Numbered from the whole stretch's first letter, positions 17,246-35,900 are shown. The stretch is DNA of 55,739 nucleotides, filler included, from Basidioascus undulatus (GCA_000826855.1; 3 parts of 3 records of this genome joined end to end with filler, not necessarily neighbours in it); one strand, 5' to 3'. Translations and numbers: made by a program. The notes: generated by a model not told the origin, from the sequence alone.

Positions 17246-18533
17246 TCAGCTGCCCGCTCTCGCGCCCTCCAACCCCAATAACCCCTCCTCAACCTTGACT
17301 TCCACCTCCCTCTCCCCTTTCCCTCCTCCTTGCACATCCTCCTCCCGCACGCCCCAAAACCGTCCCGGATCCCTCCTCTCCTCCTCCTCCAACCGCCCTC
17401 CAACCTCCTCGATCCACCTCTCCCTCCTCTCGAGCGCCCTGCGGACCCCCTCGCCTACCTCCCCGGCCCCGCCGCCCTCGAGCCGCCCGCCGTTCTTCTT
17501 CTTGATGCGCGCAATCTGCTTCTGCCGCTTCATCCACCCGGCCTCAATCACCTTCTCCAGGTCCGTCAGCGCCGAGGTGTACTCCTGCGCGGCGAGCCGG
17601 TCGCGCGCGAGCGAGAGGAGTCTGGAGCGCCGGGAGGTGTTGATTTCGGATTGCGCGCGCAGGAGGTGCTGCAGCTGCGAGAGCTGGTGCGAGATCGCGT
17701 CGTCGGGGGGGTGGGTTGGTGTCTGTGCGGGGGGAATGTCAGCAGCAGTCAGGCAGACACAGCAAAGCGAGCAGGAAAGAAGAGAGGGGATCGAAATGCA
17801 CCTCCTCGCTCTCGCCCAGCACGCCAATGAACCTGAGCTCCCTCTTGATGCGAACTTCCAAGTCCTCCACGTCCATCCGCTCCTGCTGGATACCCTCCCA
17901 CCCGAGCCCATCCCACGGGTCCGCGTCCGCCGCGCCAGGCGCGGCAAACGCCGCGACGAGGCGCTCCGACACGGGGCCGAGGTGCGCCTCCTCGCCCGCG
18001 AGCTGGTCCTCCGTCAGCTCCTGCGGCGCGAACCGCGGGAGCGCCGGCGGCCGCGCCGTCGTCGCGGGCGGGATCGGCTGCGGCGTGAGGCCCACGTCTT
18101 CGTCTTCCCAGACGGAGAGATACGGCCGCCCGAGAGGTGGGTGGATGTACGGCGTTATGTCGTCGCCCTGAAACCAAGACACTGATGAGAGATTAGCGTA
18201 GAGCATCGGATGCAGTGCGAGAGGCAGAAAACGCACCTTAGCGGACAGGAACATCAGGTCGTCTTCCCCCAGCGGACGCAGGTATCCCTCCACAGCAGCA
18301 TAGAAGCTCGTGATCTGGATCTGGTTCCCCGGCTTGCGGTCCGTGAAGTCCTCGTCCACGTCGGCCTGGTTCTTGGCTGTCGCGGGGAGGGGGACGCTGT
18401 GCGGGGCAGCGGGGAGGGGCGGTTCGGTGGGGAGGTCGAAGACGGTTGCGCGGCGGGGCTGGGGGAGCGGGGGAGGTGAGATGCAGGGGGGAAGAGAGGG
18501 CTGTCTGGAGCACGGAAGAGGGGTGAATGCAGG
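17246..18533 (-). CDS. NGG1: SAGA/ADA complex subunit Ada3/Ngg1, 5' end lost in gap
   Basis: DEDFTDRKPGNQIQITSFY..VEGYLRPLGEDDLMFL, PYIHPPLGRPY..VW, LGPVSERLVAAF, DLEVRIKRELRFIG, DDAISHQLSQLQ..LR, LAAQEY...DLEK: Ada3 domain motifs across at least 2 introns. Confidence 0.88.
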
Positions 18534-18633
18534 NNNNNNNNNNNNNNNNNNNNNNNNNNNNNNNNNNNNNNNNNNNNTTAATTAATTAANNNNNNNNNNN
18601 NNNNNNNNNNNNNNNNNNNNNNNNNNNNNNNNN
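18534..18633. other. Assembly gap with artificial six-frame stop linker
   Basis: 100-nt block of N with TTAATTAATTAA at 18578-18589. Confidence 0.97.
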
Positions 18634-19133
18634 GATCTCCCCACCCTAATCAGCCTTCCTCCCCTCCTCTCTCCTTCTTCCCGCACACTCACCGGCACTT
18701 TCACACCCGCACTCCTCCCGCTCCGTTCCCGCACCCTCTCCGGCACCCCAACACTCTCCCCATTGATCCTCACCCCCTCCACCCCTCCTCCCTCGGTCCA
18801 GAGCACCTCGAACTCAGCGCCAGGACATAATTGTCCCGGTACACCTCCCCCCGCCCGTCCCAGGTGTCTTCATAGCGCAGGACGCGGAAAAACGGTTTGT
18901 GTGCGTCGAGGAGGCGCTGTGAGCGGGCGAGGTCGGCGCGGGGGGTGATAGGGAGGTGCGGGAGCAGGAGTAGGGAGGTGCGGGAGCAGGAGGAGGGAGG
19001 GCAGGAGGAGGAGGACAGCGCCTTGATTAGGGGGAGGCGGAGTTAGAGGGGAGAGGGACGGGGGAGGAAGGAGAGAAGTACCGAGGAGAGGAAGGAGAAC
19101 GCGCTTGATTAGGCGCGGGATGCGGATGGACAT
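18634..19133 (-). CDS. 5' part of an uncharacterised gene with signal-anchor-like N-terminus, apparently frameshifted and truncated by the gap
   Basis: ATG at 19133: MSIRIPRLIKRVLLPLLG|AVLLLLPSLLLLPHLP. Coding-like sequence continues in other frames after a 22-nt duplication. Confidence 0.35.
18949..18992 (+). repeat. Exact 22-nt tandem duplication
   Basis: TAGGGAGGTGCGGGAGCAGGAG x2. Confidence 0.9.
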
Positions 19134-19399
19134 CGGAGCATTGGGTTCACGCGTGTTCACGCGATGAGATTGCGGGTTAAGAGGGAGAAAACAGATGGGG
19201 TGATAGTTGGGTGTCAGGACGAAGAGAGTAAGTATAGGCCCAGCGACGTACGGACGGCGGACAGGCGGATTGATGCCGCAGGGGGCCGTTGACCGAGGAA
19301 GACGTCTTCGTTTGCGAGAACGCTGACCGCTGCCATCAGCCATGGGGTGAGAGTCGTTGTTGTCGTGGAAGCTTTACGTGCAACAAAGAAGAGATTCGT

Positions 19400-19493
19400 G
19401 GGCTCAGTTGGGATGATGTGATCAAAGATTGGCTAAAAGACAGCAGTGGGAGGCCGGACGGTCCTTCCCGCTCAGTAGACCATCATCGCGGCG
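19400..19493 (-). ncRNA. Putative intronic box C/D snoRNA (possible snR73/U35-like D' guide)
   Basis: C-like GCGATGA (19489-19483), internal CTGA (19475-19472) preceded by GATGGTCTA, which can pair with LSU UAGACCGUC using one G-U. Terminal CTGA at 19407-19404. Lies inside a gtgcgc..gctgat..cag intron. Confidence 0.5.
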
Positions 19494-19759
19494 GAGAGGC
19501 AATCAGTGGCAAGCGCATGGTAACCAAGTTCGGGAATCAGGACAGATACTTCGGAACGCAGGACAGATGGCCAACAGACGCAGACGGGGACGGGGACAAA
19601 TCCGACAAAAGGCAATGGATGGATTGGAAGAGCGGACCACGAAGACCATCAACAAGAGCGCACGGTGCACTGTAAGAACACCAGCAAAGGAAGACGGGGT
19701 CAACGTTCCGTAGTCGACACAAGGATGTGATGAGGTGCAAGCTGCGGCGTCGTCCAGTA

Positions 19760-19845
19760 AGGCTCAGATAAAAAGTACCACGTTAAAAGTTCTCGACAGG
19801 GGAGATTAAGACAGGGATAACTGAAAATGTTGTATCATCCTTGGG
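19760..19845 (-). ncRNA. snR38: Box C/D snoRNA, snR38-like (guide for LSU Gm2815, yeast numbering)
   Basis: C box AGGATGA. 13-nt guide CAGTTATCCCTGT is complementary to the peptidyl-transferase-centre sequence ACAGGGAUAACUG. D' CTTA places the +5 position on G2815. D box CTGA at 19767-19764. Inside a gtgagt intron. Confidence 0.88.
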
Positions 19846-20026
19846 ATGCTGGGCGGGCGGTGCGGACCATTCCCAAAATCCTTGACGGAAGGAAGACTCA
19901 CGATGACGGAAAGGCCGGAGGGGAAGAGGCTGAGGGGTGTCTGTGGAAGGTCTTCGTGCAACACGGGTTAGCCGCAGCTCGTGGGAACAGCAGTGCATTA
20001 AATAGGATGAGGTCGAAGGAGCGCAA

Positions 20027-20151
20027 AGGTTCAGCGGTTGATAGACTCGTGCGTCTCGGCATGGATGGGAGTCACACACCCCATGTGGGGCGGGCCAGCC
20101 ATCGCGTACGTGGATTGACAGACTATTGGTTTCAAGAGACTCATCACGTAT
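20027..20151 (-). ncRNA. Box C/D snoRNA, SNORD110/snoR14-like (SSU U1231 yeast-equivalent)
   Basis: Perfect C box GTGATGA (20147-20141). 11-nt guide TCTGTCAATCC is complementary to SSU GGAUUGACAGA. D box CTGA at 20034-20031. Flanking GGAGC/GCTCC stem. Inside a gtgagt..gctaac..ag intron. Confidence 0.82.
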
Positions 20152-20296
20152 GTGCTCCCCTCCTTCCTTCCTCCATCACACAAGAAAGTAACTCACCAGT
20201 TCAAGGGGATTGAAAAAGGGACGAGGGGAAGATCTGCGGAGAGGTCTACGCATGTCGTGGGTTAGTAAAGGGTGTGGGACAGTGAGGTGCGTGAGG

Positions 20297-20376
20297 GGAT
20301 CAGCGAAAGGTTTTCCGCAGACAGCGAGGAGCTTGCTCGACGCGTGTCGGAGACAATAAATAACAGCATCACGTTG
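20297..20376 (-). ncRNA. Box C/D snoRNA, U56/SNORD56-like (SSU C469/A470 region, yeast numbering)
   Basis: C box GTGATGC. Guide GTTATTTATTGTC is complementary to SSU GACAAUAAAUAAC. D box CTGA at 20303-20300. Inside a gtgagt..actaac..ag intron. Confidence 0.82.
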
Positions 20377-21152
20377 GGGCGTGCCCATGTGCCAGGGTGG
20401 GCTCAGATGGAACGTTGAGGGGGATGGGGACTCACGAGTAACAGGAGCGGTAGGAGGGTTGAAATACAAAAGGCAGTTGCTCAAATAGTGCGATGGACAC
20501 TTCGATAAGAGAAGAACAGCAAGACGAAGGGACGAAGACAAGAGGGAAGGAGGAGAGAAGAAGACGAAGACGAGAGAGGCGCGCACGCCCAAGTCCCGCG
20601 CCTTCAAATCTCGCTTGTCGGGTATCGGTTTTACGCAATTCACATCGGCGAAACTTTGGGGAGGGGAAGGGGGGAAGGATTCCCTCGCCCTCTCGCTCTC
20701 AAGGGAACCCGGGAAGACCGACCGTCAAGGTGAGGCTGATTGCGCTACAAGTGGTCCATCTCGCCGTGCCAGACGACGTCGACGACCTTTGACGAGGTGC
20801 ATACGACCGTGCTGGACAGGCGTGGGGCGCGGGGAAGCCGCGCGAGGGTTGGATTTCGGTGCGAGGGGGAGATGGAGCTGGGCGGGCGGGCGGAAGACTT
20901 GGGGTCGGAATGGGCTGCAGGGGCACTTTGGCGGTCTCGTGAGGGTTGGGAACGGAATACTGACGAATACCCTGCCCCTTCCCCCTCACGATTCTCACTC
21001 TCTTCGTCGCCGCTCGAATCCGCCTTCTACGACCCAAAACCGACTTCTCGCCCTCGCGCGCGCACCCGACCTTCCCTCCTCCCATCTGTCTCTCACTCTT
21101 GCCGTCTCGCCCTCGCCCTCTCGCTCGGTCGCCCCGACTTCGCGCGCACAGT

Positions 21153-22006
21153 ATGCCGACCCGTTTCTCCAACACCCGCAAGCACCGCGGTCACGTCTCG
21201 GCCGGCCACGGTCGTGTCGGCAAGCACCGCAAGCACCCCGGTGGTCGCGGTCTGGCCGGTGGTCAGCACCACCACCGCACCGTGCGTGCCCTCCTCCCCC
21301 CGCCTCCGGGTCTCTGGGGGGCAGTCGCTGATGGACGGAATGGGCTTTGTGGGGCATTGGACGGGGGTAACAGAACTTCGACAAGTACCACCCCGGTTAC
21401 TTCGGTAAGGTTGGGTGAGTGCATTTTCATTCCCTCCAGCCTTGCGGGAGCGATGAGTGGCTGATGCGTGGTGATGTTTGCGCTGTTGTCCAGTATGCGC
21501 CACTTCCACCTCAAGCGCAACCCCTACTGGCGCCCGGTCGTGAACGTCGACAAGCTGTGGACCCTCGTGTCCGTCTCCCCTCCCCCTCCCCCTGCTCCTT
21601 TCCCTGGTTTGGAATCTCACATTGGATGGTGGTGCGGACAGCCCGGCTGCGGAGAAGGAGGGCCTGAAGGAGGACTCGGAGGTTGTCCCCGTGATCAACA
21701 CGCTCGAGCACGGCTACGGCAAGGTCCTCGGCAAGGGCCGCCTCCCCAAGGTCCCCTTCATCGTCAAGGCGCGCTTCGTCTCGCGCAAGGCCGAGTGCGT
21801 CATCCCTTTCCTCTTCTCCCCCATCCTCCACCATGTCCCCCCTCCTTCCATTGCACCCTTTTCTCCTCACGCTCCCGACTGACAACTTGAATGCACCAGG
21901 CGCAAGATCAAGGAGGCCGGCGGTGTCGTCTCGCTCGTTGCGTGTACGTTGTCATCCTCGCTCTCCCCTCATCCCTTCTCCTTTCCTGACCCTCCCTCTT
22001 GCAGAA
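21153..22006 (+). CDS. RPL28: 60S ribosomal protein uL15 (yeast L28/CYH2, mammalian L27a)
   Basis: [62 protein letters not shown]...[12 protein letters not shown]...[23 protein letters not shown]. Five introns; the last splits the stop codon. Confidence 0.97.
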
Positions 22007-32987: not shown

Positions 32988-35900
32988 CTACATCCATCGC
33001 CGACTGCGTCTCCGCCTTCGCGGACTGGTCCAGCAAGTACTGGAGCGTGAACGTGTTGTCCTCCGTTCTGCGCACATGCTCGATGTCAACAACGAGTCCC
33101 TAGATGCACGAAAGAGAGAAACAAGTTCTCGACTCACATCCTGGCCACGTCCCTCTGCCACTCTCCCAAGCCCTTCTGCACCGCCCGGAGTGGGGCGGCG
33201 AACTCGCCCTGGCGGTCCCTCAGCACGCGGCCGTGCGCGCTGAGGAGCGCGCCGACCCAGAGAAGGTCGTACTCGAGGTGCACGCTGCGCTCCATGTGCT
33301 TCCCCAAAAACCCAAGAAGGCGGTCGAGGTACACGACGGGGAGCTGGCGCGCGACGAGGCGGACGTCGGAGGGGGGCACGGCAACATAGCACGCCTCGAT
33401 GAGCTGGGGGTCGTTCAGCCGGAAGGCGAGCACGAGCGCGGGGAGGTACTCCCTCTTCGCGAGGGTGTCGCGCACCGCCGCGGGCGTGAGGTCGATGTCG
33501 AGGTCGAACGGATCGAAGAGGACGGACTCGTCGAGCGAGTAGATGAGCAGGCCCTCCGTGCTCGCTGCCGCCCAGGCGCGGCCAGTCGGCGCAAAGCGCA
33601 CGCACTTCGTCCGCGCATCCGGGCGGTACTTGCGGCGGGAGAGGTCGCCCTTCTGCGCGCCGGGGAGGGTGACGTCGAGCCGGTCCTCGAGGTCCGACTC
33701 GTCGCCCATCGGCGCACCGCCGTCGAGCGGCGTCCCGTCCTCGCCCACCATCCGCGAGTCCAGCATCTCCTGCGTCCCGTCCAGGGCGAGGTTCTGAGAG
33801 ATCTCAAACTTCTTGACCGCCACGCCCTCGCGTACGTCGTACAGCAGGACATACTTGCTGTTCCCGCCCGCGAGGATGCACGACCCGTCCGCCGTGTACG
33901 TGAGGGAATTGAAGCTCTTGCCCGAACCGCTGTTGGCCGCAGTCGTGCGGTCGTCGAAGCGCCGCCCGCCAGAGACGTCCTTCCGCCCCTCGATCAGCCC
34001 CGTCTGCTTCCCGAGGTCGACGTCCCAGAACGAGATCTGCCCGTCCAGCGTCGACGCCGCGACCTGCTTCCCGTCCGGACGGAACGCGATCGCGAGCACG
34101 TCCGAGTTAAGCGCGAACGGCTCGACCGCGCGCGACCGCCCGTACACGTCCCAGACCCGGATCGTCCGGTCCCACGAGGCGGAGGCGAGGCGGTTGCCCG
34201 AGGGGGAGAAGGCGAGGCCGGAGACGGGCCCCTCGTGCCCGGTGAGGACGTCGAGGAGCTTGCCCGTCTGCACGGACCACATGAAGATCTCGAACGAGTC
34301 CGTGGAGCCCGCGGCAACGACATCCCCGGACGGGTCGACGGCGAGGGACGAAAACTGGACGGGGCTGGGCGACGTGAAGGTGCGGAAGTTGCGGTACCTG
34401 ACGAGGTCGAACGCGCGCACGGTCCCGTCCAGGGACGCGGAGAAGAGGACGCGGCCCTGCTTGGCGAACTCGACGGTGGACACGGCGGAGGAGTGCTCCC
34501 CGAACGTGACGGAGCAGAAGCCGGTGGTGGTGTTCCAGACCTTGACCTTGCCGTCGTCCCCGCCGGTCGCGACGACCTGCCCGTCGGGGGCGAACGCCAG
34601 GGCGTTCATGTCGTAGAAGTGGCCCTGCTGCTTGAGGACGTAGCTCTCGGACTGCCACTCCCAGACGAGGAGCTGGCCGAGCTTGCGCGCGCCGAACGCG
34701 AGCCACTCGCCAGACGCGTTCACCGCCACGCTCTCGATCTTCTCCTGCGAGATCGACAGCGTGTGCACGTTCGTGAACGACGGCAGTTCCCACAGCCCGA
34801 AGACGCCCGAGGAGAACCCGACGACGAGGAGCGAGCTCCGCGGGTGGAACGTCGTGCATACTACGCGCGTCGCGGGCAGGTTGAAGTAGTGCCGGGAGGA
34901 GATCCCCCACCGTGTGTAAGCGATCGCGTTCGGCCCCGTGGGCGCGGAGGGGCCCGGCGCGGACGCGTCGCTGTCGTCCGAGTCTTCGGCTGACGCATCC
35001 AGCTTCGCAGTCCAGGTGAAGACCGCGCCGTCACGGCTGACGGTATAGATCTGTGGGAGAAGTTCTCAACATTGAGCGGTAGGAAAGTAAAGGCAGGAAG
35101 GGAACACGAACCGTCTTGCTATCCTCCGAGAAATACGCATTGACCACCCGGTCGCGGTGACCCGCGAACGTCTTCGGGCGGTAGCCCTCGAGCGGGTCGA
35201 GCGTGAACAAGCGCGCTGTCATGTCGCGCGAGGTGGTGAGGAAGAATCTGCCGAGGGAACCACGATGAGCCAACTTGTCCTGCACCTGCGACCGCCCGAG
35301 GGGACACGCACTTGGAGCAGGGCGACCACCGGATGCTGAGGACCTCGTCAAAGTGCGAGGTGTACGTGCGGTGGAGGACCATGGGCGCGAACTCGCGGAT
35401 GAGGTACGACGGCGTACGCCACACTTGGACGTGGTTCCCGTGCGTTACGGCGATGTATCTGCAGGAGAGGTCAGTATGAGCTGTGGGAGAGGCGAAGAGG
35501 ACGAGAGGACGAGACGCGCTTTCCGTCGGCTGAGAACTGGATGTCCCGCACGGGCTTGCCGAAGGTGTGGTGGTGCAGGACGGTGCGGCGGCGGTAGTTG
35601 ACGAGGAGGGCGCGGCCATCTGGGATGCGGGGTGTGTGGATCGCTCAGCTACGCCCTTTCGCCTCCCAGAACAGCAAGCACTCACCGTCATCCACGCTGA
35701 TCAGCACCCGCCCATCAGGACTCAACGCAATGCGCGCGATGTTCTTGCGGTTCTGAAACGGGAACGTGAAGCTCTTGTTGCTGTTTACGCATCCCTCTCA
35801 TCCCGTCAGCCTCGCCTCCCTCCCGTCCTCGCTGACGCTAGGGGTGGAAGACGCACTTGACGAGATCGAACACCGACACCCTGTTTCCCACGGGGCTGAG

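Follow-up and report, generated by a model that had tools for sequence, protein, structure and literature searches.

Polycistronic clusters of intronic box C/D snoRNAs are known in fungi as clusters I–III (snR78-72, snR57-55-61 and snR41-70-51; Luo et al. 2013, PMC3596301). As described in the parts of that study on which we draw, their hosts encode no protein, each intron holds a single C/D RNA and the internal exons are very small; such clusters have been found in Basidiomycota, and their members move between loci. Hosts of this kind, non-coding and with tiny exons between introns that each carry a single C/D RNA, have also been reported from N. crassa (PMC2780460), and the Cryptococcus lncRNA CNAG_12489 contains three intronic snoRNAs, with support from RNA reads, and has poorly conserved exons (bioRxiv 10.1101/2023.12.08.570810).

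The locus analysed here, from Basidioascus undulatus (GCA_000826855.1), is encoded on the minus strand of a window of 55,739 nucleotides, by which we mean the whole stretch of DNA that was analysed. Like clusters I–III, it combines a predicted non-coding host with one C/D-type unit per intron and very small internal exons, and we propose that its members, too, have moved between loci. It differs from these clusters, as far as their published make-up was compared, in the set of members: a predicted guide for SSU rRNA position A470, a snR82-like RNA, snR38 and a snR73-like unit, of which only snR73 belongs to one of the known clusters; the intact snR73 of this genome is found at another locus (L027), not in the present host. 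Like CNAG_12489, the gene would be a basidiomycete non-coding snoRNA host, known in this case from its sequence alone. An initial annotation of the region had presented the host as an unannotated polycistronic snoRNA gene; multi-snoRNA hosts of this type have already been described in Basidiomycota (PMC3596301). What is new is the composition of the set and the predicted methylation Am470; the architecture has precedents in fungi, as do two of the three clear guides. We consider it likely, on the sequence features set out below, that the cluster is real and probably functional, with a known architecture and a new make-up. The gene seems to lack a protein product and would carry three clear guide RNAs and one doubtful one.

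Organisation of the locus

Four introns are predicted between 20435 and 19323 from donor, branch and acceptor motifs, with donors at 20435, 20196, 19901 and 19663, as initially annotated. They are separated by internal exons of 49, 50 and 6 nt, and the exon of about 6 nt proposed earlier is recovered by splice motifs at 19669-19664. The features are as follows.

20436..20580, minus strand: putative first exon, rich in pyrimidines and lacking ATG; its 5' end is a guess
20246..20435, minus strand: intron 1, predicted from motifs; donor GTGAGT, branch-like motif at 20266, acceptor TAG at 20246 (alternatively CAG at 20234)
20300..20372, minus strand: box C/D RNA 1; C box 20372-20366, guide 20365-20352, D' box CCGA 20350-20347, C' box 20319-20314, D box CTGA 20303-20300
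20197..20245, minus strand: predicted non-coding exon 2, 49 nt, or 37 nt if the alternative acceptor is used
19952..20196, minus strand: intron 2, predicted from motifs; donor GTGAGT, branch-like motif at 19972, acceptor AAG at 19952 or CAG at 19941
20031..20147, minus strand: box C/D RNA 2 (snR82/Nc CD44/snoR14/SNORD110-like); C box 20147-20141, guide 20125-20112, D' box CGTA 20110-20107
20061-20056 and 20034-20031, minus strand: further boxes of RNA 2, C' and D (CTGA) respectively, with a weak second guide at 20045-20037 to LSU U1899
19902..19951, minus strand: predicted non-coding exon 3, 50 nt, or 39 nt if the alternative acceptor is used
19670..19901, minus strand: intron 3, predicted from motifs; donor GTGAGT, branch-like motif at 19703, acceptor CAG at 19670
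19764..19840, minus strand: snR38 copy (RNA 3); C box 19840-19834, guide 19823-19811, D' box CTTA 19810-19807, C' box 19798-19793, D box CTGA 19767-19764
19664..19669, minus strand: putative 6-nt microexon between CAG 19670 and GTGCGC 19663, placed from motifs only
19323..19663, minus strand: intron 4, predicted from motifs; donor GTGCGC, branch-like motif at 19340, acceptor CAG at 19330 or 19323
19404..19486, minus strand: unit 4, doubtful; 19486-19476 can be taken for a C box as well as for a guide, followed by CTGA 19475-19472; D-like boxes at 19425 and 19407
21153..21281, plus strand: first coding stretch of the uL15 (RPL28/L27a) gene, E 2e-20 to 60S L28 chains; context only

Each intron contains one snoRNA-type unit, with 54–94 nt from D box to acceptor. 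The earlier statement that every intron holds one C..D unit stands for introns 1–3 but is uncertain for intron 4, whose C box may instead be a guide. When the small exons were compared for a common origin, the similarities were not significant (42, 306 and 788 of 1000 shuffles).

The SSU and LSU rRNAs of the same genome served as antisense reference, with positions numbered from the start of the Rfam match. Perfect complementarity extends over 14 nt in intron 1 (20365-20352 to SSU 467-480), 11 nt in intron 2 (20122-20112 to SSU 1229-1239) and 13 nt in intron 3 (19823-19811 to LSU 2816-2828), so that the three perfect runs annotated initially are all present, the one in intron 1 being slightly longer than the 11–13 nt given for them. 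Within 18700-21200 these runs in introns 1 and 3 are the only ones of at least 13 nt. Two perfect runs of 11 nt occur there: that of intron 2 follows a C box, and the other, at 19892-19882, has no C box before it and was treated as chance. RNAs 1–3 all have at least 10 bp of rRNA antisense beside a D or D' box. For a chance control, a unit was defined as a C-like box, at least 11 nt of perfect antisense within 25 nt of it, and a downstream CTGA. The stretch 19320-20440 contains three such units; of 2000 dinucleotide shuffles, 1974 contained none, 25 one, a single one two, and none three. In the whole window, both strands included, five distinct places fit the definition, three of them in these introns. 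The remaining two, 35718-35804 (minus strand) and 3646 (plus strand), were treated as chance, the former resembling coding or splice-flank sequence.

In a search with Rfam models, nothing in the whole window reached a gathering score; the only sub-threshold match of the locus was snoR38 in intron 3 (35.9 bits against a cut-off of 45, E 0.0032), and no snoRNA family matched introns 1, 2 or 4 at E<=10. Folding was no more stable than in shuffles for any unit (z -0.9 to +1.0). Degenerate D' boxes are seen in RNAs 1, 2 and 3 (CCGA, CGTA and CTTA). According to the part of van Nues et al. consulted, GA is the most conserved element of the D' box and D' boxes can diverge strongly; the boxes of RNAs 2 and 3, which lack GA, depart from that rule. 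Certain internal boxes recur in the window, at L027 and in a metagenome contig, L107, discussed below: D' CCGA, and C' in the forms TGCGGA, TGCCGA and TGTCGA. These variants may explain why the Rfam models miss such units.

The predicted spliced product contains no ATG from 20600 down to 19141. This and the splice motifs around each unit agree with the polycistronic intronic box C/D host of the initial annotation. Because an 87-codon ORF beginning at 19133 and then an Ada3-like gene follow downstream on the host strand, the snoRNA introns could alternatively belong to the 5' leader of one of these protein-coding genes, the host then being an mRNA with its first ATG at 19141/19133. UTR hosts of snoRNAs exist, as the introns around the RNA 1 homologue described below begin 2 nt past a calcipressin stop codon, and a Cryptococcus snoRNA has been placed in a 5'UTR intron (bioRxiv 10.1101/2023.12.08.570810). 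We nevertheless regard a leader as unlikely here: the ORFs at 18773-19133 have no Pfam match and the 90-codon one has no usable protein-atlas match, although the latter is weak evidence, and a separate transcript might begin at a pyrimidine-rich patch near 19230-19170.

As to the neighbours themselves, 18773-19133 (minus strand) comprises two overlapping ORFs of low complexity, 87 and 90 codons long, which may together form a single small spliced gene, and 17742-18530 (minus strand) is coding sequence of Ada3-like type (Pfam E 0.039), truncated by an assembly gap, 18534-18633, that conceals the start of the gene. On the other side, the intron-rich uL15 (RPL28) gene occupies 21153-21950 (plus strand), head to head with the host and with about 600 nt between the putative starts.

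Predicted guides for SSU U1232 and LSU G2820

RNA 2 pairs with SSU rRNA over 11 bp perfectly, or over 14 bp with two G-U pairs (-21.2 kcal/mol), and its D' box CGTA would direct methylation to U1232, the equivalent of human 1288. The sequence context of U1232 is that of S. pombe Um1248, which is 98% methylated (mass-spectrometry table, PMC4605285 supplement), and the earlier assignment of this guide to the SNORD110/snoR14 target is borne out. In N. crassa, 18S Um1227 is served by CD44, whose listed homologues are S. pombe snR82, snoR14 and HBII-55 (PMC2780460, Table 1). RNA 2 resembles this family (snR82/CD44/snoR14/SNORD110) in having a D' guide to the same SSU uridine. Since the site is methylated in S. 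pombe as Um1248 and is served by guides in N. crassa (CD44) and S. pombe (snR82), methylation of U1232 is not new to fungi; the contrast that the initial annotation drew with S. cerevisiae is true, but the novelty does not extend to fungi as a whole.

Unlike CD44, as tabulated in that source, RNA 2 is 117 rather than 85 nt long and has a possible second guide to LSU U1899 where CD44 has one for Cm776; it also has no Rfam match (RF00610 and RF01280, E<=10). The second guide (9 bp, -11.7 kcal/mol) was not accepted: by our own estimate about one such match is expected per 15–20 boxes, and S. pombe has no 2'-O-methylation at the U1899 equivalent among the 30 of 79 rows compared (PMC4605285). A pattern search of the genome for RNA 2 gave 14 matches, with a clear C box, judged by eye, in RNA 2 only. 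The degenerate D' box, without the usual GA, is a weakness of the assignment.

RNA 3 forms a perfect 13-bp duplex with LSU rRNA, and the fifth nucleotide from its D' box is G2820, the G of the snR38 site, as had been assigned. A second copy of snR38 is present in the genome within an intron of the EF1-gamma gene (L009:1420-1701, G000:C2438), 88% identical to RNA 3 over 88 nt, and the snR38 guide occurs in these two copies and the rDNA and nowhere else. An exon of this EF1-gamma gene matches 17 proteins at 44–57% identity, of which the nine with species names all belong to Basidiomycota, in keeping with a basidiomycete only distantly related to the sampled species. EF1-gamma is presumably the product of yeast TEF4. 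In S. cerevisiae, snR38 is located in TEF4 (PMC9351541), so the EF1-gamma copy has the position seen in that yeast. The spacing of the sites agrees as well: G2820 lies 144 nt from C2964, the possible site of the doubtful unit 4, and the snR38 and snR73 sites are likewise 144 nt apart in N. crassa (2773 and 2917; PMC2780460) and S. cerevisiae (2812 and 2956; PMC3511168).

RNA 3 shares its guide and target G with snR38/snoR38Y/SNORD38 (RF00213) and differs from that family in scoring below its gathering threshold, in its D' box CTTA and in its predicted non-coding host. The EF1-gamma copy also scores low (30.8 bits), which indicates that the RF00213 model suits this lineage poorly. We take the EF1-gamma copy to be the ancestral one and the copy in intron 3, which keeps its guide and boxes intact, to be derived. 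The flanks of the two introns are unrelated on the 5' side (527 of 1000 shuffles) and weakly alike on the 3' side (33 of 1000); as they are not clearly related, movement of a whole intron is not supported.

RNA 1 and the predicted site at SSU A470

RNA 1 pairs perfectly with SSU 467-480 over 14 bp (-17.0 kcal/mol). One unpaired base separates the guide from the D' box CCGA, and the D'+5 rule accordingly points to A470. The U56 site is Cm471 in Arabidopsis and Cm517 in human (PMC3511168 table), and since U466 of this genome aligns with the pseudouridine 466 of yeast, C469 here is its equivalent. RNA 1 is like U56/SNORD56 (RF00275) in that its D' guide covers the same part of the SSU 5' domain. 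Its register is one base off, however, D'+5 falling on A470, one base 3' of C469, both here and in L107, and no Rfam match to RF00275 was found at E<=10. The U56/SNORD56 identity proposed initially therefore applies to the paired region and not to the target nucleotide. A pattern search of the genome, whose assembly may be incomplete, gave six matches and no further copy of RNA 1.

A single metagenome pattern scan was made for RNA 1 only, not RNAs 2–4, with both D' spacings allowed. It gave 76 loci, 23 with a downstream CTGA and three (L100, L107 and L110) with donor and branch motifs in addition; 71 of the 76 are treated as chance or unresolved. L100 and L107 are identical at 679 of 681 bases and so represent one organism. 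They have in common with RNA 1 ten letters around the D' box and the same A470 register, and the similarity beyond the search pattern, after the D' box, was reached by 0 of 1000 shuffles. The conservation check thus covers RNA 1 only, in one other organism; a sequence-only model of RNA 1 yielded nothing more than partial, guide-level matches in 16 other loci.

The homologue lies inside a motif-predicted intron, the middle one of a series of three snoRNA-type introns starting 2 nt past the calcipressin stop codon. These three introns, in the calcipressin 3' UTR, span L107:620-1292 (minus strand) and are likewise present in L100. The units neighbouring the homologue in L107 have guides to LSU A2679 (12 bp) and, weakly, to 5.8S rRNA (9 bp), without counterpart in the published site lists compared, and the A2679 guide has no match in the incomplete assembly of our genome. 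Separately, L110:1730-1810, L048:1768-1872 and L044:654-730 are putative C/D RNAs of U56 type with the C469 spacing, the latter two chosen by eye; Rfam gave no confirmation for these candidates.

RNA 1 could also be a plain U56 that methylates C469 through a different or slipped D' box, in which case there would be no new site. Its duplex falls exactly on the U56 target region (C469 being Cm471 of Arabidopsis and Cm517 of human in the PMC3511168 table), D' boxes may diverge greatly according to van Nues et al., and no paper found by search mentions 'Am470'. Yet the C469 register would need a D' box CGAC here and CGAG in L107, neither conserved nor containing GA at the usual place of the box, and the base pairing with U466 that it implies is missing in both RNAs, whereas CCGA is identical in the two and is also the D' box of the snR73 of this genome and of the two other L107 units. 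The search, moreover, was able to detect C469-type spacing, as L110 has it. We consider a plain U56 improbable.

The A470 reading was also compared with published sites. In S. pombe, 2'-O-methylation is absent between SSU 439 and 544 (PMC4605285 supplement), N. crassa has none listed between SSU 417 and 538 (PMC2780460), and methylation of A470 is absent from the S. pombe, N. crassa, S. cerevisiae, Arabidopsis and human lists, in the portions compared. 'Am470' did not occur in the literature searched, a provisional result, since a fungal snoRNAome supplement (PMC5824354) or the Cryptococcus supplements could list an A470 guide; a search on fungal U56 found no paper on it by title or abstract start. 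We put the chance that the predicted Am470 is both real and undescribed a little below even. RNA 1 may descend from U56, as its target would suggest, but a shared target could be convergent.

The presence of a U56-like and a SNORD110-like guide side by side had been taken as a possible trace of an old linkage. Human NOP56 does host both SNORD56 and SNORD110, as had been stated (PMC9454646). The U1232, snR38 and snR73 guides are absent from both L100 and L107, which are short contigs; the sole homologous locus, from one organism, thus places RNA 1 in another host and lacks the U1232 and snR38 guides, a result that speaks against an old linkage. Hoeppner and Poole, in the part of their work consulted, describe intronic snoRNA positions as unstable at such evolutionary depth.

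Intron 4 and the proposed assembly of the set

In unit 4, the stretch 19486-19476 pairs with LSU 2960-2970 over 11 bp with two G-U pairs, its position 5 falling on C2964, the target of the intact snR73 at L027. The unit has no perfect antisense run of at least 11 nt. It is like snR73/U35 in addressing the same LSU site ahead of a CTGA, and unlike snR73 in having two G-U pairs in place of G-C, a weaker duplex (-15.6 against -21.4 kcal/mol) and no good upstream C box. Both differences from the snR73 guide are CpG-to-TpG changes. The tail resembles that of the L027 snR73 at a level reached by 3–8 of 1000 shuffles, in a comparison picked post hoc, with 82–230 of 500 for four control tails. Similarity to the snR73 intron was not significant for the whole second half of intron 4 (183 and 194 of 1000) and varied with gap costs for the first half (26 and 259 of 1000); a tandem duplication within intron 4 was not significant either (216 and 312 of 1000). 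The unit 4 duplex scores 10 in our guide-duplex scan against rRNA, U2 and U6 (threshold 8.5), which is within noise, three of the six duplexes scoring at least 10 looking like chance.

The unit might instead be a genuine fourth snoRNA with its C box at 19486 and D box at 19407, as initially drawn: the C-like box is good and the D box perfect, they span 83 nt, the distance to the acceptor (74–81 nt) is as in the other units, and L107 intron C opens with the same nine letters, though not significantly so (35 of 500). Against it, the scan found no guide ahead of the 19407 box at threshold 8.5, and the supposed C box doubles as a snR73-type guide with a snR73-like tail. We hold a genuine fourth snoRNA to be rather doubtful and give somewhat better than even chances to a diverged or decayed snR73 copy. 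An H/ACA or other structured RNA in intron 4 was rejected, its folding being no better than that of shuffles (z +1.2).

The intact snR73 is part of a second intronic snoRNA cluster of the same build in this genome (L027:843-1575, G000:C1522). One unit there has guides to LSU U2428 and A810 and is presumably snR78-like; a further unit is, by its motif, presumably snR77-like. That cluster has no Rfam match at E<=1.

With one, and probably two, of its four units being duplicates of genes found elsewhere, the present locus might be thought a silent relic, a set of duplicated snoRNA introns in an untranscribed region. This is highly improbable in our view: the possibly incomplete assembly contains no second copy of either RNA 1 or RNA 2, donors, branch points and acceptors are kept in all four introns, and the snR38 copy has retained its guide and boxes.

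Under the active host that we favour, a UHG/GAS5-like non-coding transcript would begin at about 20.55 kb, in divergent orientation to the neighbouring uL15 gene, with which it may share control, and would be spliced, the exons acting as a splicing scaffold only. After debranching, trimming of each lariat would leave a box C/D RNA bound by Snu13, Nop56, Nop58 and fibrillarin, with 2'-O-methylation predicted five bases from D' at SSU A470 (intron 1), SSU U1232 (intron 2) and LSU G2820 (intron 3). The set would have been assembled by snoRNA mobility rather than inherited as an ancient block: the snR38 of intron 3 would be copied from that in the EF1-gamma intron, and intron 4 would probably hold what is left of a snR73 copy.

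The cluster chiefly improves annotation, as no part of it reaches Rfam thresholds. Both Hoeppner and Poole and Luo et al. (PMC3596301) have suggested that snoRNAs are mobile, and the locus offers a direct view of this, with one duplicate that is 88% identical and another, probable and decayed, next to guides present in single copy. Tentatively, with the odds slightly against us, we suggest that some basidiomycetes keep a U56-like guide slipped by one base relative to D', with A470 in place of the C469 of plants and animals; that this guide moves between hosts, non-coding here and a calcipressin 3' UTR in L107; and that the present host serves as a landing site, with one copy intact and one decaying. 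If true, a one-base shift of register retained by two fungi would illustrate cleanly how a methylation site can move through an alteration between guide and D' box.
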